From: Prevotella sp.
Lineage (GTDB): Bacteria; Bacteroidota; Bacteroidia; Bacteroidales; Dysgonomonadaceae
Length of the DNA stretch: 64,000 nucleotides
NCBI GenBank assembly: GCA_031285625.1
Contig: JAITVV010000095.1
Coordinates: 259,282 to 323,281 of the forward strand
Direction: 5' to 3'
Position 1 is the stretch's first letter, and every line of letters begins with the position of its first letter. Shown piece after piece: positions 42,679-59,597 of the stretch. The translations under genes and the position numbers were made by a program. The notes under the pieces were generated by a model. That model saw only the letters and a program-made list of their open reading frames with translations, made no database searches and was not told where the DNA came from.

Positions 42679-42682
42679 AATT

Positions 42683-43378: not shown

Positions 43379-43407
43379 AGTTTTTATTATTAATTTGTTA
43401 ATAGAGT

Positions 43408-43511
43408 AATTAGCATATTTGAGAATTAGCATATTAGCAAATGGACGCAAAGCAAAAAAACATTGACAATGTCACCATTTGCTAATTTTCGAATTTGCTA
43501 ATCTGCTAATT
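43408..43511. repeat. AATTAGC-unit inverted repeat array
   Basis: TAATTAGCATATTTGAGAATTAGCATATTAGCAAAT...ATTTGCTAATTTTCGAATTTGCTAATCTGCTAATT. Confidence 0.7.
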
Positions 43512-43513
43512 GA

Positions 43514-44461
43514 TTAGTTATTCGGGCTATAAAATACAACCTCATCCTCAAACGGAATTACAAAGCCCAGACGCAAACGGCCATCAATAAAGATCTTGCT
43601 ATCCTGCGGCGCTGCAAATTGCCCCATGCGGATCTCCTCCAGGTCGCGAACAAGGTCGGTACCGATAAGGAAGTTTTTAGCATCGGCAGCTACCATGTCA
43701 TTATCGTTAAGGCCTTTTACCGGAACGATTTCCACACCCATGTAGCGAACCACATCGCCCTCTACCGTAAAGTTAGGGCTAACCACTACATTGTCGCCCC
43801 AGATACCACCCAGTGCCATTTTCACTTTCAGGAATGTAGGATACGAAACGTAGATATTCAGTGTACCGTTTTGCAAGCCCAGTGCAACCACATTTTCGGG
43901 GATAGCGGTAAACATTTTTTCAATCTCCTCCAACACATTTGCTTTGGTAAGCGCTACACCCGAAACCTTTACGGCTTGTGTGCTGTCGGTAAGTACTTTG
44001 ACCACACCGTCGAAGTCGTTGGCGTCTACCGAACTGTCGCCTTTGAAGATCTTGGTTTCGATCTCGCTGCTCAATTCTGCCGCCAATATTGCCATAGTAG
44101 CATCCTCCAGGGTGTCGGGCAATTCCATATTCTTTGCACCGGGGCTAAGCATCCATACCGTGCGTTTGCGTTCAAGATCGTCGATACATTGTTCCAGATT
44201 GATCTTGTAGGTCTTGATCTTTAATTCCTTCTCACTCAACTTGGCTATCTGCTGAGGTGTCCACGAGCAGTCGCGTGCATCTGCCTGAAGGATATTACCT
44301 TCGAGGTCGATCAGGTTAAGTTGTGTCGATTCTTTTACTCCGATCACAGGAGTGATTTTACCTTTTTCGATAAGTTTTCCACCAAAGATTGCTTTTGTGA
44401 ACCAATCCATGTTAGAGGATGGCTGATAGGTCAGTGATGAAATGTCATACATGTTTGCCAT
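43514..44461 (-). CDS. Major capsid protein
   Basis: 315 aa after protease/scaffold; GVK, C.WT...L.EK.L....K.NLE.C..D, E..IFKGD, FDG, YMGVEIV patterns; biased codon use. Confidence 0.8.
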   Translation of the reverse strand: MANMYDISSLTYQPSSNMDWFTKAIFGGKLIEKGKITPVIGVKESTQLNLIDLEGNILQADARDCSWTPQQIAKLSEKELKIKTYKINLEQCIDDLERKRTVWMLSPGAKNMELPDTLEDATMAILAAELSSEIETKIFKGDSSVDANDFDGVVKVLTDSTQAVKVSGVALTKANVLEEIEKMFTAIPENVVALGLQNGTLNIYVSYPTFLKVKMALGGIWGDNVVVSPNFTVEGDVVRYMGVEIVPVKGLNDNDMVAADAKNFLIGTDLVRDLEEIRMGQFAAPQDSKIFIDGRLRLGFVIPFEDEVVFYSPNN

Positions 44462-44501
44462 AATTTTGTTTTGATTTGAGAATATGCTGTTTCTAATACT
44501 T

Positions 44502-44583
44502 TGTCATGCTAACAACAGGAAGCATCTCTTGTCTTTTTTCCATGAATAAATGAATCGAGATCCTTCGTTACCTCAGGATGACA
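44502..44583. repeat. REP-like palindromic element
   Basis: TGTCATGCT..CAACAGGAAGCATCTC...GAGATCCTTCGTTACCTCAGGATGACA between protease and capsid genes. Confidence 0.85.
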
Positions 44584-44605
44584 AAAGCCATCAGCATATT
44601 GATTA

Positions 44606-45769
44606 TTATTTTCTTCTGTTAATAGTTTGGTTAAGAGCCACAGCCATACGTTCGGCAGTAGTCATTTCGCTCAGGTTTTTAGAGCCTGAAAGCTGGATGG
44701 CCGGGTAAGCCGAAGGAGTTTTCTTGCGCATTTCTTCTACCTGGCTTTTAGTGTCTTCGAGCATGCCCTGTGCTTCGTTCAGCGATTTGGTAAGCTGATC
44801 GATCACCGATTGCATTTCGGCAATTTTTGCTTTCAATGCTTCAGCCGTTTTCGGGTCAAAATCTGCTAATCTGTGCTTAGCCTTGTGATGCTTCAACGTT
44901 TGCGGCGCTTTGGTTTCTTCAGGGTTGGTCTTGTTTCCGGATGCTTCTTTTGTTTCCACAAATTGCCCCTGATCGTCGATTACAAGCAGATTACCATCTG
45001 CCAGTTTGTGTTCTCCGGCAGGCATTTGCTCCTCATCCATAGTTGCAAATCCGTCCTGATCTACATACACTTCTTTACCGTCTGCCAGTACAAACAGCAC
45101 ATAGGCTTCGCCACTGGTGGTAACGTCCGATTTTTCTACTGCCTCTATATCGAGTAACATATTTGCAATGCGCCCCAGCAGTGTCTGTTTTGCTTTTTTC
45201 TTTTTATCGTTCATAGATTTATAATTTGTTTTAGACAATGAGATTTCCTGATTGAAAAAGCCTTCGAGTGAAAACCCTTTTACATTTCCGTTCATCACCT
45301 CATTTGTCCAATAGTTTTTATCTTCTATCTTGTAGCTGCACATCAGGGTTCCTTTGGGTAAATCTGTAAAACCGAGCGCATTGGATTTGTCGTTTGCAGG
45401 GTTTTCTACAATCCACAGTTCGATAAGGTAGTTTCCGCTGAGTGGCGACTGGTGCTGATGTGTGGTATTGTGCAAGGCAATACCCGTTTTCATCATTTTG
45501 TGAGCGATTTTTTCGATCTGCCCTGCCGAAAACTTGATGTAGTAGTCGCCCAGCTCAGGAGAGTTGCGGTAGATCAGCTGTTCGGGTTTGAGAACAACAC
45601 CGGTAAGTATCTGCTTTTGTTCATCCTTACTGAGGTGTAATTCTTTTTGTCCCCTAAGGGCTACAAAATCGATCTCATTGGCGGGCATATCTACAAACGA
45701 AATGGCATAAACTCCTGTCAGGTCGTCTACATTTTCGTCAATCACACAGTTGTATACTGGTATCTTCAT
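44606..45769 (-). CDS. Prohead protease (XkdF-like) fused to a scaffold-like coiled coil
   Basis: AISFVDMPA.E, GVVLKPEQLIYR, THQH, LPKGT, VKGFSLEG; C-terminal PAGEH.L.DG and coiled coil. Confidence 0.8.
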   Translation of the reverse strand: MKIPVYNCVIDENVDDLTGVYAISFVDMPANEIDFVALRGQKELHLSKDEQKQILTGVVLKPEQLIYRNSPELGDYYIKFSAGQIEKIAHKMMKTGIALHNTTHQHQSPLSGNYLIELWIVENPANDKSNALGFTDLPKGTLMCSYKIEDKNYWTNEVMNGNVKGFSLEGFFNQEISLSKTNYKSMNDKKKKAKQTLLGRIANMLLDIEAVEKSDVTTSGEAYVLFVLADGKEVYVDQDGFATMDEEQMPAGEHKLADGNLLVIDDQGQFVETKEASGNKTNPEETKAPQTLKHHKAKHRLADFDPKTAEALKAKIAEMQSVIDQLTKSLNEAQGMLEDTKSQVEEMRKKTPSAYPAIQLSGSKNLSEMTTAERMAVALNQTINRRK

Positions 45770-45822
45770 ACATATAAGGGATTTAGTAAAGGATTATGAA
45801 ATAGTGGAATTCCGTTGCTTAT

Positions 45823-45835
45823 AATAAGATAATTT
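45823..45835 (-). promoter_or_regulatory. Shared upstream motif AAATTATCTTATT (candidate late promoter)
   Basis: Identical 13-mer at 7298-7310 (+) before the terS operon; variants before TMP, portal, chaperone and neck operon. Confidence 0.5.
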
Positions 45836-45871
45836 CGATTTTGGAAAATGCATTTGCCGGATTATCTTTTT

Positions 45872-45983
45872 TGTCATGCTGAGGCACGAAGCATCCCGAC
45901 CCATTTGTCCATGAAAGCTAACATTACAGGAGCATAGCAGATGGAAAAGAGAAAAGAGGTCCTTCTCTGCGTTCAGGATGACA
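45872..45983. repeat. REP-like palindromic element
   Basis: TGTCATGCTGAGGCACGAAGCATC...TCAGGATGACA. Confidence 0.8.
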
Positions 45984-46060
45984 AGGAAGGGTATGAAGAA
46001 TAAAAATTACCCGAAAATTAATTCCTCTTATTTCTAAAAAAAATCAAAATAAAAAAGAGA

Positions 46061-46190
46061 AGAAAAGTTTTCTTTTATACTTTTCTTTTAGTTTATGTTT
46101 ATGTTTTAGTTTATATATATAAGGCTTACTGTTATGCTTTACTTTATACTTTCTTTTATACAGTTTTTTCAACTACTTCTTTTTCAGCAT
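46061..46190. other. AT-rich, strand-skewed origin-like tract
   Basis: TTTCTTTTATAC at 46069-46080 and 46150-46161, GTTTAT repeats, central TATATATA. Confidence 0.4.
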
Positions 46191-46302
46191 AAAAAACTTG
46201 TTAACTTCAATTCCAATTTATATTTTTAACAAAAAGTATTTCATTTGCCCAAAACAATGTGTTAGATTTACACACAAACAAATACAACCTAAAACCGATA
46301 TC

Positions 46303-47112
46303 ATGAAAAAGACAAGTATAGGATTAACGATTATTCTATCGCTTATCTTGATGATAAGTTGTAGCGATGATGACGACGGATTTACACCCATTACCGAGGA
46401 AGACACAATGCTGGCTGTGTCGGATACTGTATGCATGATGTTCAGGTCGATGAATGGCAGCAGCGACGGTGGAATAGATGGTATGGAAAGAGGAAAATAC
46501 AGGGAGCTGCACCATCGGTCGATGAATAGTGCAATTTTTGAGTTTGATGATTTTGTAGAAAATTCGTCTATTACATTTATCGCCGGAACGGATAGTGTAA
46601 AAATAAGGGGGTATGTAGATTGCGGCTATGTAAAAAGCGGATCTCAAATGCTGGTTAGTGCATGGAACGCTCACGATGCCATTGTTAAATACAAGTTTGA
46701 AAACAATGCTTTAAAGGTGCTCATAAAACCAGAAAATAATGAATGGGCGACCCTGGGATACGGCAACAAAGAGAAAATAGAAGTATATATAGAAACAAAA
46801 GCTTTCCATGTGGGCGCTATGATTACCGATCCAAACCACACCGATCCGAATATGGACGACAAATATGTGTGGGAAATAAACGGCACTACCCGTTTTGAAG
46901 CGAATATCAGCGTTACTCCCGAGCAGGCGAACAAAACAGTAGAGACACAATACTGGCAGGATTTCTTTGATGAAGTGCAAACCAACTGGATATACATCCC
47001 TGTAGGCAAGTATTATGGAGAAACGTTTAAAAGTCAGCAGGATATGAAACGTAAATATCAGGGTGCAACCTGGTCGGTATATAAGATGACATATACGCCC
47101 AAAGAATTATAA
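46303..47112 (+). CDS. Hypothetical lipoprotein
   Basis: Lipobox MISC followed by SDDDD. Confidence 0.7.
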   Translation: MKKTSIGLTIILSLILMISCSDDDDGFTPITEEDTMLAVSDTVCMMFRSMNGSSDGGIDGMERGKYRELHHRSMNSAIFEFDDFVENSSITFIAGTDSVKIRGYVDCGYVKSGSQMLVSAWNAHDAIVKYKFENNALKVLIKPENNEWATLGYGNKEKIEVYIETKAFHVGAMITDPNHTDPNMDDKYVWEINGTTRFEANISVTPEQANKTVETQYWQDFFDEVQTNWIYIPVGKYYGETFKSQQDMKRKYQGATWSVYKMTYTPKEL

Positions 47113-47249
47113 GACTGACTCACAACACAAAATACTTATATAAAAGATACTTTTACCGGGGATATTTTCGTCTCCGGTATTTTTTTGTTATTAAATCTTA
47201 CAGCTTTTTATCTATATTTGATCTTCAAACACAAACAGTAATTTACAAA

Positions 47250-48065
47250 ATGAAAACAGTAAGCTGCATACTACTTATCCTTATCCTTTGCGCATGTGTA
47301 AAAAAACAAAAAAATACAGATGAATACTATTTGTCGGTAGACAATATAGAAGACTACAAAAACGAATATGATGATAAAGGCCGGCTGGTAAAGGTAACCG
47401 ATTATCGTATCAGAGGGTATTATGATGTAAGGGATACCGTGTCGGGAGATGCAAAATTCTATTACTATGACGAGAGGGACAGCCTGAAATCGATCAGGGG
47501 CTATTCGATATATCCTGACAGGGATGCGAAACAGATTTCGCTGGAAACCTTCTTTACCGATAGTAGCGAGACTACGGTAAGATACAGGAAATACCCGACC
47601 GATACGGCAGGAATCTCAAAAAGGATGTGGGGTATTAAACACCCACCTGTAAACAAAGATATGGCAAAAGCAGGTACAGCAACATATACAACAAAGGCAA
47701 GCCCAACCAGCAAAAAGGAGTACACCAGTAAGGATACCATAATCACCGACACATACGACGAACAAGAGATTCTGAAATACAGGACAAAAAAGTATCACAC
47801 AAAAGAATATTTTGTAGAAACCAGTTATAGGTTTGAAGATCATGCTATGGACTCAATTTACTACAAGGATAGTAAAGAGGTGAAGGCGATATATGTCACT
47901 CCGGATGAGATAAATCTGATTGTTAGCGAATATGACCACTACAATAATATTACAAAAAGGGTAAGAAGCATTTTCAGAACGCGGGAAGCAGAAAAAAAGG
48001 TGCAGGAGAATCGCGACCAGTTGGCAAAAATGATTAAGGAATATCAGAACTCTGCGGATCAATAG
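47250..48065 (+). CDS. Hypothetical lipoprotein with YD-like repeats
   Basis: Lipobox LCAC; EYDDKGRL, YYYDERD, EYDHYNN. Confidence 0.65.
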   Translation: MKTVSCILLILILCACVKKQKNTDEYYLSVDNIEDYKNEYDDKGRLVKVTDYRIRGYYDVRDTVSGDAKFYYYDERDSLKSIRGYSIYPDRDAKQISLETFFTDSSETTVRYRKYPTDTAGISKRMWGIKHPPVNKDMAKAGTATYTTKASPTSKKEYTSKDTIITDTYDEQEILKYRTKKYHTKEYFVETSYRFEDHAMDSIYYKDSKEVKAIYVTPDEINLIVSEYDHYNNITKRVRSIFRTREAEKKVQENRDQLAKMIKEYQNSADQ

Positions 48066-48205
48066 CCGATAGAAAGACCTCCTTTATAAGCAAATATCTT
48101 ATCTGTAATCAGGATAGAATCATTTTATCTTATGATTATTCATATCTTCACTAAACCTTTATAGAAAAGGATAGTCTATCTTTATATACGAATAACCGAC
48201 GCGAT

Positions 48206-48823
48206 ATGAAAATCCTGAATTATATATTTATCCTGTTGCTGTGTATAGGCTTTGCGGCCTGCGAAAAGGATGATCCTTATGTAACACCACCACCCACAGA
48301 ACCCGAAAATCCGGTAGATCCACCCACCGAGAAAGAAAATATCGTTTTCAATCTGGATGGAAACCTTATCCGTGCGGGAAAGGAAAAATCGGACGATGCG
48401 GTTTTTAATCTCGATGGAGACTATATCCGAGCCGGAGAGAAGAACACAGGCGACATCGTCTTTAATATCGACGATAAGCTAATACGTGCCGGAAAAGATA
48501 AGTCGGGCGATGTGGTTTTTAACATCGACAACAATTATATCCGTGCAGGTGCTTCTGCTGATGGGGATATTGTATTTAATATGGATGGGGAATATGTGAG
48601 AGGGGGAGAGGGGAAGGTGAGTAGCCTTATATTTACGATTGAACCTAGCTTATTGACTGATAATAAATTCTATGTCTATGCCAGAGAAAGTATCATATAT
48701 ACAATTGAGCCTAGCTTATTGACTGATAATAAATTTCATATCTATGCCGGAGAGAGTATCATATATACGATTGAGCCTAACTTATTGACTGATAATAAAT
48801 TTTATGTCTATGTCGGAGATTAA
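48206..48823 (+). CDS. Lipoprotein with two kinds of tandem repeat
   Basis: Lipobox FAAC; five 19-aa VFN.DG..IRAG repeats, then three 22-aa TIEPSLLTDNKF repeats. Confidence 0.7.
   Translation: MKILNYIFILLLCIGFAACEKDDPYVTPPPTEPENPVDPPTEKENIVFNLDGNLIRAGKEKSDDAVFNLDGDYIRAGEKNTGDIVFNIDDKLIRAGKDKSGDVVFNIDNNYIRAGASADGDIVFNMDGEYVRGGEGKVSSLIFTIEPSLLTDNKFYVYARESIIYTIEPSLLTDNKFHIYAGESIIYTIEPNLLTDNKFYVYVGD
48629..48820 (+). repeat. 66-bp tandem repeat, about 3 copies, coding
   Basis: Equivalent positions at 48631, 48697, 48763. Confidence 0.9.
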
Positions 48824-48825
48824 TC

Positions 48826-48848
48826 TACTGGGGATTTTCACCCCAGTA
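48826..48848. terminator. Terminator-like hairpin between convergent genes
   Basis: TACTGGGG-attttca-CCCCAGTA. Confidence 0.65.
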
Positions 48849-48859
48849 AATAAATATTC

Positions 48860-50980
48860 TTACACCCCTACCCAGCCATCTACGCTGACCATACTTTCCT
48901 GTACTTTGGCGATATCCGTTACTGCTACTTTTGGCTCGATACGGATAGACTGAATAGCTTTTATCAAGTTCTCATTATCAATATTAGCCACTGGTTCTAC
49001 AGCTGGCAATTGTCCTCCATCGGCAAACATACGCTTAAAGGAGGGTTCTGTACTTTGCAACGAACGTGAAAAATAGGTATTGAGATCACTTGGAGACAGT
49101 TCGCGCCGTTGCTCATTGATATACTTCACCAATCCCAGATTCTTATTTGTAGACACACGGTTGACCACATATTCACCGCCTTCTACTTCCATATTGGTAC
49201 CTTCTATACGCATACCTCCTTGTGCATGGCGTTTGCCTCGGAGTAGTCCTCCGTCTTCAAATTTGGCTAGTTGTGCCGTCATTATCTTTAACTGCATAGC
49301 ACCGTTTAAAGCTACTAATGCAGCCAATGGAGGACCAAGTATCGGGCCTTTTCCCCATGCTGTAGCAACACCTTTGGCAATCTCCTTTGTCGCTGTAGCA
49401 ATATCAAGTACAAGTTGAGCTTTTGCCTTTATTTTTTCCAGTTTTTCGAGTTTTTCTTTTCTTTTTTGTGCTTTTTCTGCTATTTCCGCATCTTTTTTAG
49501 CTTTTTCTTCTTCAAGTTTCTTCTTGTCGTCCTCTATGCGCATCTGTTCTAATAAAACACTGCGATTGCTCTCTGTTATTCTATTGTTAGCATTTTCTAT
49601 TGTTGATTGTTTATTTTCTACAATTTCCTCTTCTGCTTTAGCAAGTTTGTCTAACTCTTCTATCCTTTCATATGCCGCCTTAATTTCTTCTTCCGATGCA
49701 TCAGCTACCGGCACAACATCACTTTTTTCAGAGCTATCTTTACTTTCAGAATCAGTATCTGTTGGAATTTCGGCAGTTAAACTTTGCAGAGTATTCGTAG
49801 ATTCTTCAGGTTTATTAACATCCTCTTTTTTCTCATCAGCATTTGGATTCTTTACCTTGAAAGAATCTTCTATTTTTTTTATATCGTTTTTATATTTTTC
49901 TGCCTTTATTTTTGCTTCTGCCTGTTCTTTTTCTGCTTTTTCTTTTTCTTTTTCATATTTTGAGGCTTCAGCTCTTACTTCTTCCAGTTCCTTATCCAGC
50001 TTTTCTAATTTCTTTTTATACTTTTCGTCATTGGCAGCTTTTTCTTTTGTTTCTAAATCTGTGATGCCTTTTTCCAGTAGCGTTACACTTTCTGTTATGC
50101 CTTTTGCAAAATCATGGAATCCATAAGTACTATCTTTTAGAAACTTATCAAAACCACCCTCATTATCCTTGACAAAGTTTTCAAGTTTTGTTTTTATTTC
50201 ACCATGTTGTGTATTCCAAATATCCAGATAAGATTTGTTTGATTCTTTAATAGTTTTATCGGTTTCTAGTATTTTTTTTTGCAATTCTTCCAGTGCTTTT
50301 TCTTTGTCCTTCTGTTTCTGCTTAAATTGTTCACTATCTTCGGCATACTGAGAGATTACACTGCTATAATATAACTTGGTTTGTACACCTGCCACCTCCA
50401 GTTCCTCTTTATATTTTTTAAGCACGGCTACACGTTCTTCCGCCCTTTCTTTGTATGCTTTGAGGTTAAGGATACCAATCTTCTTTTCTTTTTCAGCTTC
50501 GTCTTCTGTTTTTTCAGTCGATTCTTTAAGTGATTTTGCAACTAATTCTTTATTTTTCGCTAATTGCTGTTCCAGCCTTGTTGTTTGTACTTCACTTTTT
50601 GCCGTTATTTTGTCTATGTAGGCTTCCATCACCGTAGATGCTTCTATTGCTTTTATTTTAATGGAAGATAAGCCGGAATCGGCAGATTTTCCCATACTCT
50701 CAGCCAGTTTTTCTCCGGCTTCTATATTTTTTTCTATAGCCTGCCCCGCGTGTGTGCTCAGTTCGGTGATTATTGCTTCTATCTTCGCCATTTGCAAAGC
50801 GATGTATTCTATTACATCTTTTAGCTCATTTTTGTAAGTGTCTGCTACATCTTTTGCTGTAACGGACATACCTTTTGCTTTTACATCTACCTTCTCTAAA
50901 CTGTTACTTAACTTTTCTACATTTTCAGTACTTTTTTCTACTCCATTAACGAGTAGTGTAAATTCTTTTTTATCTGCCAT
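48860..50980 (-). CDS. Tail tape measure protein
   Basis: Long K/E coiled coil, hydrophobic GPILGPPLAALVA segment, C-terminal KFEDGGLL.G..HAQGG...EVEGGEYVVNR and FADGG motifs. Confidence 0.75.
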   Translation of the reverse strand: MADKKEFTLLVNGVEKSTENVEKLSNSLEKVDVKAKGMSVTAKDVADTYKNELKDVIEYIALQMAKIEAIITELSTHAGQAIEKNIEAGEKLAESMGKSADSGLSSIKIKAIEASTVMEAYIDKITAKSEVQTTRLEQQLAKNKELVAKSLKESTEKTEDEAEKEKKIGILNLKAYKERAEERVAVLKKYKEELEVAGVQTKLYYSSVISQYAEDSEQFKQKQKDKEKALEELQKKILETDKTIKESNKSYLDIWNTQHGEIKTKLENFVKDNEGGFDKFLKDSTYGFHDFAKGITESVTLLEKGITDLETKEKAANDEKYKKKLEKLDKELEEVRAEASKYEKEKEKAEKEQAEAKIKAEKYKNDIKKIEDSFKVKNPNADEKKEDVNKPEESTNTLQSLTAEIPTDTDSESKDSSEKSDVVPVADASEEEIKAAYERIEELDKLAKAEEEIVENKQSTIENANNRITESNRSVLLEQMRIEDDKKKLEEEKAKKDAEIAEKAQKRKEKLEKLEKIKAKAQLVLDIATATKEIAKGVATAWGKGPILGPPLAALVALNGAMQLKIMTAQLAKFEDGGLLRGKRHAQGGMRIEGTNMEVEGGEYVVNRVSTNKNLGLVKYINEQRRELSPSDLNTYFSRSLQSTEPSFKRMFADGGQLPAVEPVANIDNENLIKAIQSIRIEPKVAVTDIAKVQESMVSVDGWVGV

Positions 50981-51103
50981 AATATTTCTTTTTTTAGTAA
51001 ACTTATTACCTGCTATTAGACAAATCTGAAAAAATTCGATAACGGCTTAAACTGTATGCTAGTTTATAAGTCTATATTTGTAGAAATTAATAATTATACA
51101 CAT

Positions 51104-51544
51104 ATGAAAACAAAAACAGACCTATACACCAAAATTGTACTGACAGTAATAGCCGTATTCTTAGGAATAATAATAGTAAAAGACATAGACATTGTATCCA
51201 AGGCTCAGGCGGGCGAAGTCATCAACCTCTCTGGTCAGGGTAATGCAATCCATCAGGAAAGGATAACGGAGGACTTTGAAGACTATTATGCAGTAAATGA
51301 TACTTATGTGTTTTACAACGGAGTAGAAATAGAGGGAGCCAGCGGGCGTCGCTTCGAACTATTAAAGGATGGCTACACAAAGGATAATAACTATGTGTAC
51401 TACAAAGGGAAAAAGGTAACAAGTGCCAACAAGCAGTTTGAAGTTCTTTCGGGAGGCTATGCCAGAAATGGGATTGCGATATTCTATAAGGGAAGAGAAA
51501 TAAAAAAGACAAATATGAAAATCGTGGTATTATCGAATAATTAA
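51104..51544 (+). CDS. DKNYY-repeat-like membrane-anchored protein
   Basis: KTDLYTKIVLTVIA anchor; YTKDNNYVYYKG repeats. Confidence 0.7.
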   Translation: MKTKTDLYTKIVLTVIAVFLGIIIVKDIDIVSKAQAGEVINLSGQGNAIHQERITEDFEDYYAVNDTYVFYNGVEIEGASGRRFELLKDGYTKDNNYVYYKGKKVTSANKQFEVLSGGYARNGIAIFYKGREIKKTNMKIVVLSNN

Positions 51545-51560
51545 AATATTAAAGTGAAAT

Positions 51561-51620
51561 ATCCCGACTCTTTTTTCATGAATAAATGAGTCGAGATTCT
51601 TCGTTGCACTCAGAATGACA
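51561..51620. repeat. REP-like element (5'-truncated)
   Basis: ATCCCGACTC...GAGTCGAGATTCTTCGTTGCACTCAGAATGACA. Confidence 0.7.
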
Positions 51621-51665
51621 AAAAGAATGATACTCCGTTCAATATAACAAAGAGATAATAAAGCA

Positions 51666-51699
51666 AATCCCCTGCACTTCTCTCAAGTACAGGGGATTC
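51666..51699. terminator. Terminator hairpin after the portal-adaptor operon
   Basis: AATCCCCTG.AC...GT.CAGGGGATT between convergent genes. Confidence 0.7.
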
Positions 51700-51703
51700 T
51701 TTT

Positions 51704-52249
51704 TCAGCAGCAGCCTTTCTTCTTTTTCTGGAAATAAAATCCGCTATCGAAATCTTTCTGTGCCGATCCTTCATTTATCACCTCGTTGCAACAGGCATTC
51801 TGAGGACGCCACAACGGATAATTTGCGCGGCAATGGCACATAAAGTCTATCAACTGGCTCACCAGTATCCCGGCATCATCTTTTAACCATTGGCGAAGCT
51901 GTGCAAGGTCTTTGATATCAATGCCTTTGCTATTATCACTTTCGCGGATGGTGATACCCTTGTTTACGATGGTGGCCCAGTGGAACGGCAATGCCTGATA
52001 GACCGCGTAGAACGACAGGGCGGGAGCCGTGCGGAGTATCAGGTCGCTGTTTTCGGGGGTAAGGCTGTTAGCTGTGATCTGCTGCTTGAGTTCGGTCATC
52101 AGCGGTTCGCCCAGTATGGGTTCTATATGCAGTTCCTGTGCGATACAGATATAAGGCACAAACTCGGTGATGTCGGTGTTGGAGGTCACAGGAGAATACT
52201 GCTTAAAGAGCTTCTCTGTGATAAGTGGTATTTGTATATACTCGGTCAT
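51704..52249 (-). CDS. Head-tail adaptor/connector, putative
   Basis: Follows the portal; PYI..AQE..I..ILG..L..EL, YPLW motifs; start set at MTEYIQ. Confidence 0.6.
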   Translation of the reverse strand: MTEYIQIPLITEKLFKQYSPVTSNTDITEFVPYICIAQELHIEPILGEPLMTELKQQITANSLTPENSDLILRTAPALSFYAVYQALPFHWATIVNKGITIRESDNSKGIDIKDLAQLRQWLKDDAGILVSQLIDFMCHCRANYPLWRPQNACCNEVINEGSAQKDFDSGFYFQKKKKGCC

Positions 52250-52333
52250 AATACTTAATTTGAAAATATGAAAATTAGCAAATATGAAAATGATTATTGT
52301 CACTTTGTGCCAATTTGCTAATATGCTAATTTA

Positions 52334-53425
52334 TTAATTGGCTAATTGTTCTACTATCTCCAGATCGTCTATTTCCAGCTGCTTATAGCCGTTATTGATC
52401 GTAAAAATACTGAGTGTGTCTATGATCTTGCGGCGAAGCTGATGTATCACTGTCTGGTTGTAAAGCACAAAAGAATTGATAATCTCATTGGCATTTCCCG
52501 ACAGGTTGCCCGATCCCGACAGCCCTGCCAGCGTAGGCGAAGTAAGGCGGTGTGCCGATATGATTTTCTGGAAGATGATTTCGTCCACATTATTGTACAG
52601 ATCGGCATTGTTGCTAGCTGTGTACGATGTCACCACAGGCTTTATTTCCTGGCTTTCACCCCAAAGCACTACAATGCTGTTTGCGCCGTTTGTTCCGGCA
52701 TAGCTTTGCTCTATATCCTTTTGGAACTGCTCTTTCTGTTCCTCGCTCGGGTTGCTCGGCATAGTAATAATGGTGGAAGGCACAAAGCCATTGTTGATAG
52801 AGTTGCGGTAAAATTTACCCAAAAGTCCGTCTGCCTCTATATAGTTGAATGCAGAATAATACTGAGGCACAGGATAATAATCGAGACTCGGCGCATAGTC
52901 TTTATAATAAAACAAGTATGGCACACCCTTTTGCATCTCTTCCGCGCCATAGGCTTTTATCTCTGCCGGCGCATACTTTCCGGTAGTTCGTTTCCAGTCG
53001 TTGGACAGGTAGAAGCTGAGGTATACGCCATATTCGTTCACCTGCCCTACCCTGATCTTGCTAAAGTCGGTATGGTAAACGCTTATACTCTTGCCGTTTT
53101 CGTTCAGTATCACCTGAAAGCAATATCCGCCAAAGGTGACATAGTCGCGCGCTACTTTTTCTATCAGGCTGTCCCAGTCGTCGACAGGATTGGGCTGCCC
53201 GTAGTATTGCCCGTCTTTTACTCCTGCACCGCAAATATAGGTCACTTTGTTTTCTATTACCGCCTTGTTGATAGCCGACTCATTGTTGAGTTCGATAATA
53301 CGCTGAGGGAGGAGGTTGTCGCGGTCATAGTTTATCCACCCTTTGGTACTCTTGGTAAATGTAGGATACGTCCTGATGGTATCCGACAGTTTGATTACTG
53401 TGTATTTCTTTTCTTCTATACCCAT
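52334..53425 (-). CDS. Portal protein
   Basis: W..Y..DN..P, DYVTFGG, YYPVPQY....YIEAD, NSINNGFVP, GTNGAN, IISAHRLTSP.L.G portal motifs. Confidence 0.82.
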   Translation of the reverse strand: MGIEEKKYTVIKLSDTIRTYPTFTKSTKGWINYDRDNLLPQRIIELNNESAINKAVIENKVTYICGAGVKDGQYYGQPNPVDDWDSLIEKVARDYVTFGGYCFQVILNENGKSISVYHTDFSKIRVGQVNEYGVYLSFYLSNDWKRTTGKYAPAEIKAYGAEEMQKGVPYLFYYKDYAPSLDYYPVPQYYSAFNYIEADGLLGKFYRNSINNGFVPSTIITMPSNPSEEQKEQFQKDIEQSYAGTNGANSIVVLWGESQEIKPVVTSYTASNNADLYNNVDEIIFQKIISAHRLTSPTLAGLSGSGNLSGNANEIINSFVLYNQTVIHQLRRKIIDTLSIFTINNGYKQLEIDDLEIVEQLAN

Positions 53426-53451
53426 ATTTTTATGATGTTGTTAATTACATC

Positions 53452-53487
53452 AATAGATAAATTGGGTAAAAAATGATGAAAGGGAGA
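53452..53487 (-). promoter_or_regulatory. Candidate late promoter upstream of the portal
   Basis: TCTCCCTTTCATCAT-N13-TATCTA on the minus strand; matches 54361-54397 (+). Confidence 0.55.
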
Positions 53488-53623
53488 AATATTCTTCACA
53501 CTTCATTGTTTATTTTATATAATTTTAAAAAAATAATATATATATTTACTTTTCGAGTTTAGACCAAAATAAGCGGAGTTGAAAAGCCTAACTAAATTAA
53601 TATTAACTAAAAGAGTTATTATC

Positions 53624-54169
53624 ATGAAAAATTTGAAAGTAGTTGTTTATTTTTTATTTAGTCTTTTCCTTATTTCAGGTTGTAGCAATAGCGTAAATGA
53701 AGAATATGAGGATAACAATGAGATTGCGAAACAACAGGAAGTAGTCTACGAATACTTTGTAGATGCAGATAGCCTGGTTGTACATACAGATCCTGGTACA
53801 AAAGCAGAAAAACAACCTGATATACCAAAACCTGGAGGTGGTGGTGGAGATAGTGGTACCGGATCTCCGTGCTGGTGTATGGAACCCCCTCAGATTCTCC
53901 ATGTGGAAAGACAGGTTGCTGTTGGAGAAAGAATACAAATAACTTTTGGTGGCGCATCAAAAGTAACCTATCAAGGTGTCGGTGGCGGATTGAGTTTTGC
54001 CGTGGCTAATGGGGTTGGTACACTTACTATTCTAAAAAAAGGCGTATATACTAATTTCGAAACAACCGCATGGAGAAAACAATGTGATTATACTGAAGTC
54101 GTTCATTGTCCAACATATACAACAAAATGGAGAATTGTTGCTGATTTACCTGTCCCTAGCAGAGAGTAA
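53624..54169 (+). CDS. Cys-containing hypothetical lipoprotein
   Basis: Lipobox ISGC; Gly-rich linker; own terminator at 54213-54240. Confidence 0.65.
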   Translation: MKNLKVVVYFLFSLFLISGCSNSVNEEYEDNNEIAKQQEVVYEYFVDADSLVVHTDPGTKAEKQPDIPKPGGGGGDSGTGSPCWCMEPPQILHVERQVAVGERIQITFGGASKVTYQGVGGGLSFAVANGVGTLTILKKGVYTNFETTAWRKQCDYTEVVHCPTYTTKWRIVADLPVPSRE

Positions 54170-54269
54170 TCATCTAAAATTCTCTCAATCGCGATCAAAC
54201 TAATAAGATTAAGAAATGCTTCACTACTGGTGGAGCATTTCTATTTGTTATTATGTAAAAATATAATCT

Positions 54270-54335
54270 TGTCATGCTGAGTGTAACGAAGCATCTCTTG
54301 TCTCCTTTCCTTTATAAATGAGTCGGGATATGACA
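54270..54335. repeat. REP-like palindromic element
   Basis: TGTCATGCTGAGTGTAACGAAGCATCTC...GGGATATGACA. Confidence 0.75.
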
Positions 54336-54360
54336 AAGAGAGTAAAAGATTGCGTCAAAA

Positions 54361-54397
54361 TCTCCCTTTTTATCATCTTCCCACAAAATTATCTATA
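54361..54397 (+). promoter_or_regulatory. Candidate late promoter upstream of the tail chaperone
   Basis: TCTCCCTTTTTATCAT-N13-TATCTA. Confidence 0.55.
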
Positions 54398-54418
54398 AGT
54401 AACAAATTTAATTTACTT

Positions 54419-55111
54419 ATGATAAAAGTTGAGTTTAACGACCTGAAACTGGAAATCCCCGAAAGCTGGGGAGAGATAAAACTGTCTACCTACGAGCGGT
54501 ATTATATGCAAAGCCCCAAGACAAAGATGGAGCAGGTAGCTTTTATTGCCGGGCTGTGCAATATCGATATAGATATCCTCTTGGAATCACCCGCACAAGT
54601 ATTCAATACCATAGCAGGCATCACCGATTTTGTATTCGACAATGAGCTGCCACCATCCAACAAAGTGAAAATAGGCAGCACAGAATATTTCATCTCCTTT
54701 GCCGACAAATTAACACTTGGCGAATGGGTAGATGCAGAAAATGTGATCAGTAGCGAAAGTGAATATAAGTTATCGGAACTGCTGGCTATCCTTTGCCGCC
54801 CCATTGGCGAGAAGTATAATCCCGATCTGGCAACCGGAAGAGCTGAAATGTTCAGAAACCTTCGTTGTGACAAAGCGCTGCCGTTGATCAGTTTTTTTTT
54901 ATTCAAAAAGAAAAGATCAGAAGAGATTTTGAACCACTATTCGACGGTAATGGCTCAGGCCGACCAGTTTCTAAAGGATACAAAAGCTTTTGCAGCAAAT
55001 GGGGATGGTATAAAACTATTGCCGATCTGGCAGAGGATAAGATATACTTATTTGATACGATCACTGGAAAAACAGTTGGCGAAGTGTTCGGATTTCTCCT
55101 CTACAAGATAG
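54419..55111 (+). CDS. Tail assembly chaperone (gpG-like, 0-frame product)
   Basis: IPESWGEIKL, LTLGEWVDAE, LAILCRP motifs; T9A slippery run at FFL. Confidence 0.7.
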   Translation: MIKVEFNDLKLEIPESWGEIKLSTYERYYMQSPKTKMEQVAFIAGLCNIDIDILLESPAQVFNTIAGITDFVFDNELPPSNKVKIGSTEYFISFADKLTLGEWVDAENVISSESEYKLSELLAILCRPIGEKYNPDLATGRAEMFRNLRCDKALPLISFFLFKKKRSEEILNHYSTVMAQADQFLKDTKAFAANGDGIKLLPIWQRIRYTYLIRSLEKQLAKCSDFSSTR

Positions 55112-55167
55112 ATAAGTCCCGTGCCGAAGAGGATCAGTATAAGTTTGAGAAACAGGTGAGGAGGTAG
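54892..55167 (+). CDS. Tail assembly chaperone gpT-like segment reached by -1 frameshift
   Basis: Open -1 frame after T9: FIQKEKIRRDFEPLF...KWGWYKTIADLAEDKIYLFDTITGKTVGEVFGFLLYKID...VRR*; no ATG of its own. Confidence 0.72.
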   Translation, partial: FFFIQKEKIRRDFEPLFDGNGSGRPVSKGYKSFCSKWGWYKTIADLAEDKIYLFDTITGKTVGEVFGFLLYKIDKSRAEEDQYKFEKQVRR

Positions 55168-55217
55168 AAGCAAATTGCTTATAGCTGTTAGCAATAAAAC
55201 CGGCTAACAGCTGAGTA

Positions 55218-56678
55218 TCAGAAATCCATCACATCCTCAAACAGATAATCCAGCTTATTGAAATCCACCTTATCCCCATACACTTGCTTTGCAGGTTCGA
55301 GCAGTTTTGTTAACACATCACCGATATCTTCACGCAACATTGTATCTATCCAATGCGTACGCTTATCCATCTTATTGAATTCTTCGGTATATTCCGTTAC
55401 CATCTTTTCCAATTCCTCTTGCATCCTTTCCGGTGAAGGGTTCTCCTTTATCAGTTTATCTATTTGCTTATTTAGCTTTATATACAAGTTTGCAGCGTTC
55501 TTGGCATGCGTTGGTGAAATATAATCTTCCCCATCCCAATGCCGGAAAGGATTGTTAAGATTCGCCTCCAGCCATTCGGGCTTACGTCCTTTGGTAATCC
55601 ACAAGTCGATGCCTTTGTATTCCTTCTTCACTTTTTTGGCTACATCGTCGGGAATACTGTCCATCCATATACTGGTTATATCCGGAAAATCTTTCCTTGA
55701 AGGGAAATTATCAGCCGTAAATCCAAATATATCGCGCAGGGTGAGCCTCCTCAGATTTTTCAATAACGATATCTTTTCCATATTGACGATATAATCGGGC
55801 TTTCCCCATATACGCAGTACTTTGAGGTTAGGCAGGTTTGCGGCAATCTCACCTATATCTACTTTGGTCTGGCCATCGCCACCTATCCAAAGTTCCGTAA
55901 TATTGAGATCGCGAAACAAATACAGTCGGTTTGTATTTTGCACATGCAAGTCAAAAGATCGGTTTTTAGATGTTGGCAGTATCTTTATATCACTATCAAT
56001 AGATTCTAAAAATGATAATTCGCTCAGGCAGTCGTTCAGTATTATTTCCTCAACGCCTTTACCATCTGTTTTAAAAGTAGTTAAGCAGCTTTTAGAAAGA
56101 TCGAGCACTTTCTCCTGCGCATTTTTCCAGATCAGTTCCGTTATATTACGATGTGTGTTCAGATACTCTGTCAGCCATGTTTTTTGTCCGTCAACTTCAA
56201 TCTTAGTGAGGCCGGGATATGCAGTATCCAGTTCCGCGCCATCTGCTATTCTCTGCATACTTGTCGAAACTATATTAGACCCAATGCCTTTCAGCCTTTT
56301 ATAATTCTCACGAAAAGATTCGGGCAACTCTTCCCATGCTTTTTGCAATGAGATCTGTAAGCAGCTGTAATACCAGCTTCCGGCTTTGGTTAATTCTTCA
56401 TCAGGGTGAGCGAGTACTTCTCTATTTCCTGCAAAAGAGTAGTTATCCGGGATATCTCCTTTACAAAGCATGCATGTATATTCGCCTTTCCAGCTATGAT
56501 GATCTTTCCAGAATGGCTTTATCGTATTTATATCTTTATCTGACAAAGGATTATCATCCCAATAGGATAATGCCAATAACAGATATTCCTGTTTATCAGT
56601 ATCGATATTTATGATCTGAAGCGCAGTGTATTTCTTTTTGTCTTTATTGTAATAGTTATAGATATCTCCCTTTTGCAT
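55218..56678 (-). CDS. Hypothetical protein with LRR-like central region
   Basis: LPNLKVLRIW, LKNLRRLTL repeats; opposite strand to flanking tail genes. Confidence 0.65.
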   Translation of the reverse strand: MQKGDIYNYYNKDKKKYTALQIINIDTDKQEYLLLALSYWDDNPLSDKDINTIKPFWKDHHSWKGEYTCMLCKGDIPDNYSFAGNREVLAHPDEELTKAGSWYYSCLQISLQKAWEELPESFRENYKRLKGIGSNIVSTSMQRIADGAELDTAYPGLTKIEVDGQKTWLTEYLNTHRNITELIWKNAQEKVLDLSKSCLTTFKTDGKGVEEIILNDCLSELSFLESIDSDIKILPTSKNRSFDLHVQNTNRLYLFRDLNITELWIGGDGQTKVDIGEIAANLPNLKVLRIWGKPDYIVNMEKISLLKNLRRLTLRDIFGFTADNFPSRKDFPDITSIWMDSIPDDVAKKVKKEYKGIDLWITKGRKPEWLEANLNNPFRHWDGEDYISPTHAKNAANLYIKLNKQIDKLIKENPSPERMQEELEKMVTEYTEEFNKMDKRTHWIDTMLREDIGDVLTKLLEPAKQVYGDKVDFNKLDYLFEDVMDF

Positions 56679-56782
56679 AGTCTTTATTAATAGGTTTAAG
56701 GTGCTTTTTACTATTTCCAAAGTTAGGTATTAATTATTTTCCTGAAAATTTATCTATTACTAAACACTCAAAAACTTTAGTA

Positions 56783-57331
56783 ATGATAGACAGTATTATA
56801 AACATTTTCAGGCAACAGGCCCGTGAGCATAAGCTAATCAGGGCTTTTTATTATGACCGTAATTACGAACTGGGAAGCGGTAAAGATATGTACCCGTTGT
56901 TTTGGCTCGAAGACCCTGTACGGGGATACAATAAAGACAATACGTTCCTCAACTCGGTCGATTTCTCCATTCTTTTCCTTCCTTCTACCGAAGAGTCGGT
57001 GAGCCATTTGCAAAACCTTGCTTTTTCTACAGGACTGAATATAATAGAACGGATAAAAAAGCACCAGAATACTTTAGGCATCAGCATTTTGCCCGATTGG
57101 GATTATATGACTGTAAGGGATTATTACGACGACAATGCTGCCGGATGCCGCTTCTCGGTAACTTTCACACAGATGAATATGCAAAACCTCTGCCTGATAG
57201 ATGAACAGTTTGATCCGGAGAAGGAATTTGATAAATACAGTCCGATAAAGGACTTTGACATCACTCCGGCGAATAGCTGCGAGATTTTTACAAATAAGTT
57301 CCCTGACTTTGATCTAAAAATAAGAAAATAA
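56783..57331 (+). CDS. Tail terminator/completion-like protein, putative
   Basis: First gene of the neck/tail operon; YPLFWLE and D..AG..F motifs; called from context. Confidence 0.5.
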   Translation: MIDSIINIFRQQAREHKLIRAFYYDRNYELGSGKDMYPLFWLEDPVRGYNKDNTFLNSVDFSILFLPSTEESVSHLQNLAFSTGLNIIERIKKHQNTLGISILPDWDYMTVRDYYDDNAAGCRFSVTFTQMNMQNLCLIDEQFDPEKEFDKYSPIKDFDITPANSCEIFTNKFPDFDLKIRK

Positions 57332-57343
57332 TCTTACCCTCTT

Positions 57344-57426
57344 TGTCATCCTGAGAGTAGCGAAGGATCTCTTTGCTTTTCTCCATGACAAATAAGTCGA
57401 GATGTTTCACTCTGTTCAACATGACA
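57344..57426. repeat. REP-like palindromic element
   Basis: TGTCATCCTGAG...GAGATGTTTCACTCTGTTCAACATGACA. Confidence 0.85.
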
Positions 57427-57436
57427 AAAGAAAACA

Positions 57437-57910
57437 ATGAAATATAAAACAATGAACACTGCCACACAAAAGGTAATAAACGAAATAGCAGCCGACATTC
57501 TCTCACTTGCAAAAGCCGTTTTTAAAGACGACAAAGTGAGCCGCAATACGAAAACTGGCAAGAATGCATTAAAGGAAAGGACAGAAGATATTAAACTCGA
57601 AGTAGATACAAATAATACTGTTATCCGCCTGTTATTCGATGATTATCTCACCTATCTGGAGAATGACCGCCCTCCGCGCAAAGGTAAGCTTCCACCACTG
57701 GACGAACTCCGCGATTGGGCACTGTCTAAGAATATACCGACCGACAATGCCACACTCTTCCTTATTGCCCGTGCCATTTGGCGCGATGGTCACGAAGGAC
57801 GCCCGATTTTGGCAACCATTGAGGAACAGATAGAAAAGAGATTTGAAACCGAGTGGTACGACAAACTATTTGAAGCAACAATTGACGAACTAAATAAATA
57901 TTTTAACTAA
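57437..57910 (+). CDS. Neck / virion morphogenesis protein (HK97 gp10-like), putative
   Basis: Y..YLE..R.P..K.PP...L.DW...K, FLIARAI...G..GRP motifs. Confidence 0.6.
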   Translation: MKYKTMNTATQKVINEIAADILSLAKAVFKDDKVSRNTKTGKNALKERTEDIKLEVDTNNTVIRLLFDDYLTYLENDRPPRKGKLPPLDELRDWALSKNIPTDNATLFLIARAIWRDGHEGRPILATIEEQIEKRFETEWYDKLFEATIDELNKYFN

Positions 57911-59589
57911 TGGGATATTTTATAAAAGGACTGGAAATAGCAAAAGAAACGGTTACCCCTGCCAAAGTATCTTTAGCGGGGAATCCTAATTACATCGAAT
58001 TTTCGAGCAATGCTACCGGAGAAAATAGGCTGGTAGAGATGACATTGGAGGTTATCGGTAATGGGTTTGATGAGAACCTCGATAATTTCACAAAGTTCGC
58101 TATTGTAGAGAAAAACTCCGGTGAGCAACATGTATTTGAAGCAACAACAGATATAAGCAGCATAGGAGGAGGAACATATTATACCGATCCGGCATGGAGC
58201 TTCAATAAAATAGCGGAAGCCTTAAAGAATGTGCTTCAGAGTAATTCCTTTATTGGAAATAATTTCAATATTTTATTTCCGCCAATTACCGACGATGAAG
58301 GGAATATAACCTACGGCAGAATTATTAAGCTAATATCGAAGGGAAGCGGTAGCGGTTATGCTTTCTATTTTAACCCCGAAGATGAAAAGTTGTACACATA
58401 TTTCCTAAAAAAAGCAAGTCCATCCGTAACGGTCAGCAACGATTCCATAGGTCTGGGCTACAATCCTGTAGAGATACAACTCGAACTGTATAAAGACACA
58501 GGCATATTCTTAGGTGAAGATGACCGGCCTGTAGGCAGCAATATGGGTACCCTGGCGATGCCCCTTACCAAAGCCTATTCATACACACCTATCTGGTTCA
58601 ATCTTAATATACTGGAAGCGAACAACATACCTGTCGATTTTCTGAATGCCACAGATTGGGTAGATACGGGAACGATCAATAATTTCCGTTTTGCCGCCAA
58701 GCGGTTAATATCGGACAAAGACTATTATGACAATTCACTGTTCTACTATTCCCCTGTACTGTACACAGTTGCAGGAAACAGGCGCACATTGGAAGAAAAC
58801 GATTTGTCCGATTATGTATTCGATACACAGGAAAGATTGAAAAGTCCGGAAGAGATAAAGAAAGTAAAACCACTAACCAATCAGCCTGACTTCTTCCATA
58901 TAAAAGGGCAAACACAATACTTCAATTTCATCTTATCCGATGCTGAACATAGCATAAATGTCAGTAAAGAATATCAACTTGGCATTGTTTTCAGAATCTA
59001 TTCTCAGTCGGGAAGATTTATTGCCGATAAATACGACCACTTTAAGGCGAGGAGAAATTTCAATGAGGTCAATACTATCAGGTTAAACCTCGATAAAGCA
59101 ATTGAAGGATACGAAAACGCCGGAAAGGTAGAAATCTATCTGGCTTACCGTTATGGTAGCGAAGCACCGGTTGAAGTGAGCAAGCCTCTGAGATTCAATA
59201 TTCTTCCCGAATGCCTGCACAAGGTAAAAGATTTTGCTTTTCTCAATAGCCTTGGCGGATGGAGCAGCTTTAATTTTCCGGGTACGGAACAATCAGAGTT
59301 TAAGGCAGAAGCAAATACGATATTTAAAACGCAGACACCACATTATTCGGTAAGTAGCGAGATCGAATCGGTTTATAATAAAAATACCTCCGAGCAATTC
59401 ACCGTACAGACCATGCCCGTAACAATGGAGGTTTGCAACTGGCTCAAAGAGCTTAGTGCATCCAAAGCAGTATACGAACTATCCACAAAGAGGTATGTAA
59501 TAGTGGATGAAATGAATATCAAACCCAATTCGAAAGATGAACTTTTCAGGGTGGATATAAAGTATCGGTATTCGGACGCTTATAATTGA
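57910..59589 (+). CDS. Tail structural protein (distal-tail-like), putative
   Basis: Coupled to the upstream gene; C-terminal FLNSLGGWSSFNF and WLKEL..S..VY motifs. Confidence 0.6.
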   Translation: MGYFIKGLEIAKETVTPAKVSLAGNPNYIEFSSNATGENRLVEMTLEVIGNGFDENLDNFTKFAIVEKNSGEQHVFEATTDISSIGGGTYYTDPAWSFNKIAEALKNVLQSNSFIGNNFNILFPPITDDEGNITYGRIIKLISKGSGSGYAFYFNPEDEKLYTYFLKKASPSVTVSNDSIGLGYNPVEIQLELYKDTGIFLGEDDRPVGSNMGTLAMPLTKAYSYTPIWFNLNILEANNIPVDFLNATDWVDTGTINNFRFAAKRLISDKDYYDNSLFYYSPVLYTVAGNRRTLEENDLSDYVFDTQERLKSPEEIKKVKPLTNQPDFFHIKGQTQYFNFILSDAEHSINVSKEYQLGIVFRIYSQSGRFIADKYDHFKARRNFNEVNTIRLNLDKAIEGYENAGKVEIYLAYRYGSEAPVEVSKPLRFNILPECLHKVKDFAFLNSLGGWSSFNFPGTEQSEFKAEANTIFKTQTPHYSVSSEIESVYNKNTSEQFTVQTMPVTMEVCNWLKELSASKAVYELSTKRYVIVDEMNIKPNSKDELFRVDIKYRYSDAYN

Positions 59590-59597
59590 ATTCTCTC

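Follow-up and report, generated by a model that had tools for sequence, protein, structure and literature searches.

Descriptions of domesticated phage systems, such as gene transfer agents (GTAs) and tailocins, come mostly from Proteobacteria and Firmicutes, in which the structural genes are largely contiguous. PBSX, a defective prophage of Bacillus subtilis, combines an Xre repressor, the sigma-like positive factor Xpf and a late operon, while the regulons of RcGTA and the Caulobacter GTA have the activators GafA and GafYZ, both with sigma-like features. In temperate phages of Gram-positive bacteria, the late-gene activators RinA, ArpU and LtrC are encoded directly upstream of the terminase gene terS. 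Late promoters of phage T4 (TATAAATA) are read by gp55, and typical promoters of extracytoplasmic function (ECF) sigma factors carry AAC at -35. Passages of PMC12946183 count PBSX as a GTA-like element, and no system from Bacteroidota is among the GTAs that they list. Here, we analyze a 64,000-nucleotide window, meaning the whole stretch of DNA under study, which forms the end of contig C52 in a draft Dysgonomonas genome of 4.84 Mb. Its phage-type genes, annotated via Pfam, PHROGs and NCBIfam scans, are split into separate pieces, six of which are preceded by copies of one conserved motif. This unit-by-unit promoter-like signal belongs to a genus-wide phage-derived element and goes beyond what chance would produce.

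All six sites are oriented with the genes they precede and lie shortly before the gene that opens their unit (Table 1; positions are given as the T of the T(A/G)TCT(A/T) core). An earlier note, made from the letters of the window, had pointed to a promoter-like motif shared by the separated units, and reading the sequence directly places all six copies where it had put them. The four 5-mers found 13 nt upstream of TRTCTA (ATCGA, ATCAT, ATCAT and ATTAT) are as it described, and so is TCTCCCTTT, which is common to the portal and 'chaperone' sites. The pattern of 5-mer, 13 nt and TRTCTA has four matches where 1.19 are expected, four being reached in 3 of 100 shuffles. In its full form, the motif is bipartite, reading tTT(C/T)ATca-N14-(A/T)TTATCTAT, and an A-run follows about 12 nt downstream of the T in TATCTA.

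Table 1 Motif sites and gene units of the window. TMP, tape-measure-like protein; HTH, helix-turn-helix; aa, amino acids.
Feature	Position	Strand	Core T	Details
terS-operon site	7279..7318	+	7302	Core TATCTT 7302-7307; first ATG 7313; reads ...aaaatTATCTTattgtATG, -35-like block degenerate with CAA replacing CAT; 5.9-6.0 bits
Protease/major-capsid/tail-fibre site	45815..45854	-	45831	GCAT 45851-45848, core TATCTT 45831-45826; GCAT-N16-TATCTT; 8.1 bits, genome rank 391
TMP site	51006..51045	-	51022	ATCGA 51040-51036, core TGTCTA 51022-51017; ATCGA-N13-TGTCTA; 6.1-6.3 bits
Portal-DUF6712 site	53443..53482	-	53459	ATCAT 53477-53473, TATCTA 53459-53454; tctccctttcATCAT-N13-TATCTAttg; 22.5 bits, genome rank 5
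'Chaperone' site	54367..54406	+	54390	ATCAT 54372-54376, TATCTA 54390-54395; tctccctttttATCAT-N13-TATCTAtaa; 32.5 bits, genome rank 1
Neck-terL-882-aa site	56728..56767	+	56751	ATTAT 56733-56737, TATCTA 56751-56756; ATTAT-N13-TATCTAtta; 25.1 bits, genome rank 2
Sigma-like protein	17512..18117	-		201 aa; divergent, ECF-like, sigma-70 family; candidate motif reader
Early operon upstream of sigma-like gene	18383..19843	-		112-aa, DnaD-like and DnaC-like proteins
cI-like repressor	20105..20842	+		HTH_3; PHROG 4; divergent from early operon
Early/regulatory module	16163-21188			DnaC-like, DnaD-like, 201-aa sigma-like gene, cI-like repressor
terS unit	7313..10299	+		Two small proteins, terS (7872-8357), then 316-aa and 175-aa proteins
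Lysis cassette	37743..39322	-		Holin-like, endolysin, 141-aa protein
Protease/capsid/tail-fibre unit	40370..45769	-		Protease (44606-45769), major-capsid-like (43514-44461)
Further genes of protease/capsid/tail-fibre unit	42842-43450, 42103-42678, 40370-42136	-		Last: GDSL tail-fibre-like
TMP unit	48860..50980	-		Tape-measure-like protein, 706 aa, coiled coil
Portal unit	51704..53425	-		Portal (52334-53425), DUF6712 (51704-52303)
'Chaperone' unit	54419..55111	+		230-aa protein; 'chaperone' is the earlier note's label only
Neck/terL unit	56783..63621	+		182-aa, 157-aa and 559-aa proteins, terL (59783-60955), 882-aa protein

The motif is conserved across the genus. A scan of 1.02 Mb in 135 loci of other genomes for TATCT[ACT] ahead of an open reading frame (ORF) of at least 50 aa yielded 832 candidates. 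In 114 of these, the N-terminus encoded downstream belongs to an orthologue of one of nine units (terS operon 21, protease 26, TMP 2, DUF6712 10, portal 27, 'chaperone' 13, neck 11, terL 2 and the 882-aa gene 2). Requiring T at -1 and A/T at -2 and +6 left 101 sites, or 87 after de-duplication; columns -2 to +6 are biased because this filter selected on them. Conservation extends to unselected columns: A is found 18 nt upstream of the TATCTA core in 85 of the 87 sites, T at -17 in 72 and C or T at -19 in 73, while A occupies positions +12 to +16 in 56-73 of 87. Columns between the two blocks are near background. The distance from core to ATG is 4-82 nt, in gene orientation, regardless of the order and strand of the units; these differ across species, each unit retaining its own site, and the motif is kept while the flanking sequence diverges. 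Of 21 orthologous portal loci, for example, 19 have a T(A/G)TCTA anchor 15-56 nt ahead of the gene start, and most of these 19 also have tTT(C/T)ATCA 14 nt upstream of TATCTA. The upstream block comes in two flavours, tTTcATCa at portal, 'chaperone', neck and DUF6712 sites and cTGCATTTTT at terS-operon and protease sites.

Within this genome, the 'chaperone', neck and portal sites are strong. A 40-column matrix trained on the 87 sites, all from other species, was used to score 9,678,568 genome positions, among which these three rank 1, 2 and 5 (32.5, 25.1 and 22.5 bits), all within 3.3 kb and each correctly oriented before a phage-like gene. The protease site ranks 391 (8.1 bits), and the TMP and terS sites score below 8 bits. 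The genome has 12 hits of at least 20 bits and 6 of at least 22 bits, compared with means of 1.2 (maximum 2) and 0.4 in five shuffles preserving composition in 100-nt blocks. An earlier matrix built from 18 portal sites of other species likewise placed the 'chaperone' site first, the portal site second and the neck site tenth among all positions. A crude gene call from ORFs gave 2447 upstream regions, in which the six units take ranks 1, 2, 4, 50, 78 and 85; with one unit left out of training at a time, the ranks are 1, 2, 5 (portal), 81 (TMP), 93 (terS) and 325 (protease).

Simpler patterns do not separate these sites from the AT-rich background, and the earlier note's caution on this point was justified. 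Its degenerate 11-mer has 13 matches in the window against 2.7 expected, the pattern having been fitted after the fact. The 9-mer WTTATCTAT occurs 606 times in the genome and, combined with an AT, gives 89 matches at the correct spacing and 60-73 at wrong spacings, so that it is barely enriched and not specific. Specificity comes only from the full bipartite model. A test of co-occurrence of motif and sigma-like gene per genome by IUPAC counting was dropped since the background was too high. A further match to the note's pattern, located between the sigma-like and 414-aa genes (17469-17479(-)), was set aside as chance: it scores -1.6 bits, and the downstream gene varies across species.

The three weak sites, which carry TATCTT or TGTCTA here, draw most of their support from orthology of position with consensus sites elsewhere. 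At all 17 other loci examined for the terS operon, a consensus site (ctGCATttttttcaaactcattTATCTAtactgtAAAAA) stands 500-630 nt ahead of terS, and the orthologous protease position reads cTGCATTTTT-N-ATTATCTATAc..AAAAA in most of 25 other loci. TMP orthologues are preceded by TATCTA sites in loci L026 (17.8 bits) and L030 (18.0 bits) and in genome G048 (32.3 bits). The closest clade has TATCTT or TATCTC at these three promoters, the latter at the protease position.

High-scoring hits were also seen before genes outside the phage-like set. The third-best hit in the genome, C25:18130(+) (24.0 bits, cctGCATttttttttcataatttTATCTAtata; locus L144:1667-2407), lies 30 nt before a 246-aa lipoprotein-like gene without a family match, which may have been drawn into the regulon from the host, unless the match is due to chance. 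Further hits precede five gene copies encoding a HTH protein of about 216 aa (C86:147680(+), C36:27474(+), C81:111(-), C15:58478(-) and C87:8668(+)), three of them at contig ends. Four of the five share a near-identical upstream region scoring 17-23 bits; that of the C87 copy differs (17.4 bits). The idea that this family represents terS of other prophages was rejected as unsupported: matches to terS, Sf6 and insertion-sequence HTH proteins are weak, the C15 copy heads polysaccharide-synthesis genes and the C86 copy lies beyond a glutathione peroxidase gene.

With two blocks, fixed spacing and constant orientation, the motif has the layout of a sigma-70-type bipartite promoter, and we consider it very probable, judging from these sequence features, that it is one. 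The Bacteroidetes sigma-A promoter carries TTTG at -33 and TAnnTTTG at -12 to -5, as given in PMC9723704. The geometry, the spacing and the first five positions (TAnnT) are alike, but here TTG of the downstream box becomes ATA (TTTG to TATA) and TTTG of the upstream box becomes TT(C/T)A. As the earlier note had stated, the motif is distinct from TAnnTTTG: the latter is found in none of the six unit upstream regions (85 nt), compared with 36% of the 2447 upstream regions genome-wide, and the consensus of the motif is TATCTATA. Because the G-containing positions of the host boxes are replaced, host sigma-A should ignore these sites. Placing TATCTATA at -12 to -5 puts the A of position -18 at -30, inside the position of the -33 box, and lets the A-run begin at +1. 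The promoter would have three parts: a -33-like block (tTT(C/T)ATca or cTGCATTTTT) with a near-invariant A 18 nt before the T of TATCTA, a -7/-10-like block ((A/T)TTATCTAT(A)) and an A-run that sets in 12 nt downstream of this T, at the place expected for initiation by a sigma-70-type enzyme. In several units, the ATG follows the core by only 5-7 nt, which would give leaderless or very-short-leader mRNAs. Four public runs of related strains, of which X1-X3 are labelled as RNA, were aligned to 50500-58000 and rejected as evidence of start sites; they are assembled Logan contigs, 90-99% alike, several kb long and crossing both strands, and thus uninformative on starts, strand and expression.

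The candidate reader of the motif is the 201-aa sigma-like protein encoded in the early/regulatory module. Aligning its family with 13 ECF sigmas of the host in hhalign gave a probability of 92.9% (E=3.6e-7) over 130 columns, spanning a region-2 AEDxxQ-like helix to the region-4 HTH, and its best-conserved stretches are the region-2-like and region-4 HTH-like blocks. An AlphaFold2 model (mean predicted local distance difference test 79.8, predicted template-modelling score 0.42) returned only ECF sigmas as top rows in Foldseek (probability 0.97, E 0.03) and only sigma factors as top rows in VIA-align (Z 7.8-9.2, flagged by the tool as only middling where proteins are helical). Region 4 is fitted by residues 111-201 with a root-mean-square deviation of 2.7-3.0 over 69-86 residues, and two database homologues were named sigma factors by their sources. 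Both profile-profile and fold comparison thus point to a divergent ECF-type sigma factor with regions 2 and 4. Curated family models do not recognize it: TIGR02937, the only match in the NCBIfam library at E<=0.01 (a library that should include RinA and ArpU models), scores 16.8 bits (E=0.0041), below its cut-off of 42.9. No Pfam sigma domain was found in any of 23 aligned family members, and a profile search with the family against PDB sequences gave no matches.

The genomic setting of the sigma-like gene suggests how it may be controlled. It is the last gene of an operon divergent from the cI-like repressor gene, a layout shared by loci L149-L151, and TAnnTTTG lies upstream of the first gene of this early operon. 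In three species (loci L068, L072 and L152), the terS operon comes immediately after the sigma-like gene, with a motif site between the two in L068 and L072; no site of at least 10 bits is listed at this place in L152. In the window, sigma-like gene and terS operon are about 7 kb apart and inverted. Separately, in the closest clade (loci L061-L063 of G019, G022 and G041), a TATCTT/TATCTA core stands 8 nt before the ATG of the sigma-like gene, absent from this window, and may mean autoregulation.

As the favoured explanation, which we hold to be somewhat more probable than not, we propose that the six sites are late promoters of a genus-inherited phage-derived gene set whose parts became scattered as separate units. 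The sigma-like factor would be made from the early operon, which has a host-type promoter and lies divergently from the cI-like repressor gene; relief of repression would then switch on the early operon and the sigma, which would fire all scattered structural units simultaneously. That the element's own sigma-like protein reads the motif is, on balance, the assignment we lean towards on the sequence evidence. The view that each fragment has its own late promoter finds good support in the presence of the motif before orthologues of nine units across species; exceptions are the lysis cassette, which has no recognisable site, and the early operon, which has TAnnTTTG instead.

Among described systems, PBSX, the GafA-type regulons of alphaproteobacterial GTAs and the RinA/ArpU/LtrC activators are closest in function to the proposed arrangement. 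PBSX and the present element are both domesticated phage-like elements with a HTH repressor and an early small factor of the sigma-70 family that turns on structural and lysis genes (here as a proposal); the likeness is one of function. PBSX has one contiguous late operon with one late promoter, whereas here at least six units carry one promoter copy each, in another phylum and with another promoter grammar. RcGTA and the Caulobacter GTA share phage origin, vertical inheritance, some genes at separate loci and a dedicated activator, but belong to Alphaproteobacteria, have a contiguous main structural cluster and use other motifs and an activator that is not of ECF type. The small regulator gene directly before the terS operon in L068, L072 and L152 resembles the arrangement of RinA, ArpU and LtrC, though here one motif serves many units and not terS alone. 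T4 late promoters are likewise short AT-rich late elements paired with a divergent phage-encoded sigma (here the candidate reader); they lack an upstream block, whereas the motif described here has a -33-like block, and the candidate factor has region-2-like and region-4-like parts.

A number of observations weigh against this explanation. Besides the failed matches to TIGR02937 and Pfam sigma domains, the motif has neither the AAC mentioned above nor the CGT found at -10 of an ECF-type motif in PMC9723704, and in this it is unlike usual ECF promoters. Half of the six window sites score poorly, and the lysis cassette, without an upstream site of at least 8 bits, is an exception to one promoter per fragment. 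High-scoring sites also precede non-phage genes, namely the repeated HTH gene family and the gene at C25:18130. The species compared are related, so that cross-species site counts are not independent. The four genomes scanned each encode 18-43 ECF sigmas, and in three genomes the motif is present where no sigma-like gene was found: G004 and G007 have it before their portal genes, and G048 has five unit sites of 16.7-34 bits, which suggests that another factor may read the motif.

These last points bear directly on the strongest alternative, according to which the motif is indeed a promoter, its reader is a host factor (a host ECF sigma, or sigma-A with an activator) and the sigma-like protein does something else. 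G004, G007 and G048 keep portal, terL and motif, the hosts have many ECF sigmas to draw on, and the first five positions of TATCTATA fit the TAnnT of the host box. Moreover, amino-acid identity of the sigma-like protein does not follow species divergence (Spearman 0.07, n=26), in contrast to that of the portal protein (0.75, n=30), yet the motif is the same in both sigma types. Set against this, the consensus lacks both the TTG of the host -7 box and the G of the -33 box, the sigma-like gene is tied to the element in 28 of 34 genomes, often directly before the terS operon, and not finding a gene in three draft genomes falls short of proof of absence. We therefore regard a host reader as possible but rather unlikely, and the earlier note's view of the sites as a regulon of the sigma-like protein as plausible only: its ECF-type sigma identity and wide occurrence speak for it, the three genomes with portal, terL and motif against it.

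A second alternative, which we consider very unlikely, is that the conserved block is a regulator binding site (operator or activator box) or a recombination site for cargo insertion or unit inversion. Cargo between the units does vary between strains, homology to one run stops at 53484 and resumes at 54365, in each case 25 nt upstream of a TATCTA, a duplicated site in G048 comes with a truncated gene start, and loci L002, L012 and L021 have two facing sites forming an inverted repeat. The motif itself, however, is asymmetric and bipartite, with fixed spacing and -33/-7 promoter geometry, and each unit has a single copy, which invariably reads in the direction of the gene and lies 4-82 nt ahead of its start codon, with no copies flanking the unit; breaks at -25 are also what selection on a promoter would be expected to leave. 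Finally, chance AT-rich matches or functionless shared ancestry, for which the 606 copies of the 9-mer, the 89 versus 60-73 spacing matches, three sites at about 8 bits or less and the relatedness of the species could be cited, were already disfavoured and are hardly credible given 12 hits of at least 20 bits against a mean of 1.2 in shuffles, three of them oriented before phage-like genes within 3.3 kb, the A at position -18, on which no site was selected, in 85 of 87 cases over nine units amid neighbouring columns near background, and leave-one-unit-out ranks of 1, 2 and 5 among 2447.

The element to which the motif belongs is inherited with the genus. Its gene set includes terS, terL, portal, capsid, tail and lysis genes. 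The portal gene is found in 31 of 34 other genomes of the genus at 75-88% amino-acid identity, with most frames intact, and in none of 16 genomes representing 16 other families of the order (one genome each); the protease gene is present in 26, the sigma-like gene in 28 and terS in 19 of the 34. Portal identity tracks that of a housekeeping M3 peptidase with the Spearman coefficient given above, and the sigma-like protein shows no such tracking, species being non-independent in both cases. The element shares vertical inheritance and clade-wide conservation with GTAs. In G004, G007 and G048 (96-100% complete), portal and terL genes are intact, G048 also keeping TMP-, neck- and 882-aa-like genes, and the retained genes are 73-86% identical. 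Protein, profile and paralogue queries did not find protease, capsid, terS or sigma-like genes in these three, a state that represents either a half-element or non-homologous replacement.

The portal protein is at most 24% identical to those of Bacteroides phages in a phage database, in which the sigma-like protein had no match, and viral contigs carrying the sigma-like gene are the same chromosomal element. A contiguous single-strand paralogue lies at G000 C86:111905-144585 (loci L145 and L146), with proteins 26-53% identical, a sigma-like gene of its own (143947-144585) and, on the left, a terminal serine integrase; the window's tape-measure-like protein is homologous to the C-terminal part of the 1125-aa protein of this prophage. 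Neither matrix detected strong internal TATCTAT sites in the C86 prophage, so the motif is not traceable to this relative.

The gaps between the phage units are occupied by host genes (encoding elongation factor P, ferrochelatase, an M3 peptidase and a branching-enzyme-like protein) and by small opposite-strand cargo genes. In contigs of related strains (runs X1, X2 and X4), 2428, 2165 and 2128 other letters replace or interrupt the gaps 53484-54365 and 55165-55222, the breaks at 53484 and 54365 being those described above. G048 carries two near-identical copies of the TMP promoter (C7:8734(-) and 9730(-), locus L157), both of which include the opening codons of the gene; after the second come the truncated start and, on the same strand, a Bflower-like cargo gene. 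The duplication looks like the footprint of a cargo insertion. A short repeat, GTCGGGATGCTTCG...CAGCATGACA with a partner arm, has copies in inter-unit gaps of the window (45880-46000, 42730-42800, 54270-54335, about 51590-51630 and about 57340-57430), and when public contigs are aligned to the window, 51.6 and 57.4 kb stand out by spikes in depth and by joints between opposite strands. Directly upstream of the terS-operon site lies an ORF-poor stretch of about 470 nt (6760-7230); no tRNA, transfer-messenger RNA or Rfam family was detected there or elsewhere in the window.

Besides the phylum and the promoter grammar, the main difference from known systems is one proposed late promoter multiplied over many separated units. 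In this Bacteroidota genus, a phage-derived gene set is split into units that move and invert, each keeping a copy of a probable promoter with non-host specificity, which shows in concrete terms how a prophage could fall into fragments and still act as a single regulon. The titles and abstracts listed for Dysgonomonas or Bacteroidales together with gene transfer agents or prophages do not describe the element. We tentatively suggest, as a possibility that is still doubtful, that Dysgonomonas has a genus-wide functional GTA-like system of dispersed single-promoter units, held together by copies of a non-host promoter and served by its own sigma, with the gaps acting as cargo sites. If true, this GTA-like particle system would be the first in Bacteroidota. 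The sigma-like protein and the motif also form a candidate orthogonal sigma-promoter pair for Bacteroidales genetics.

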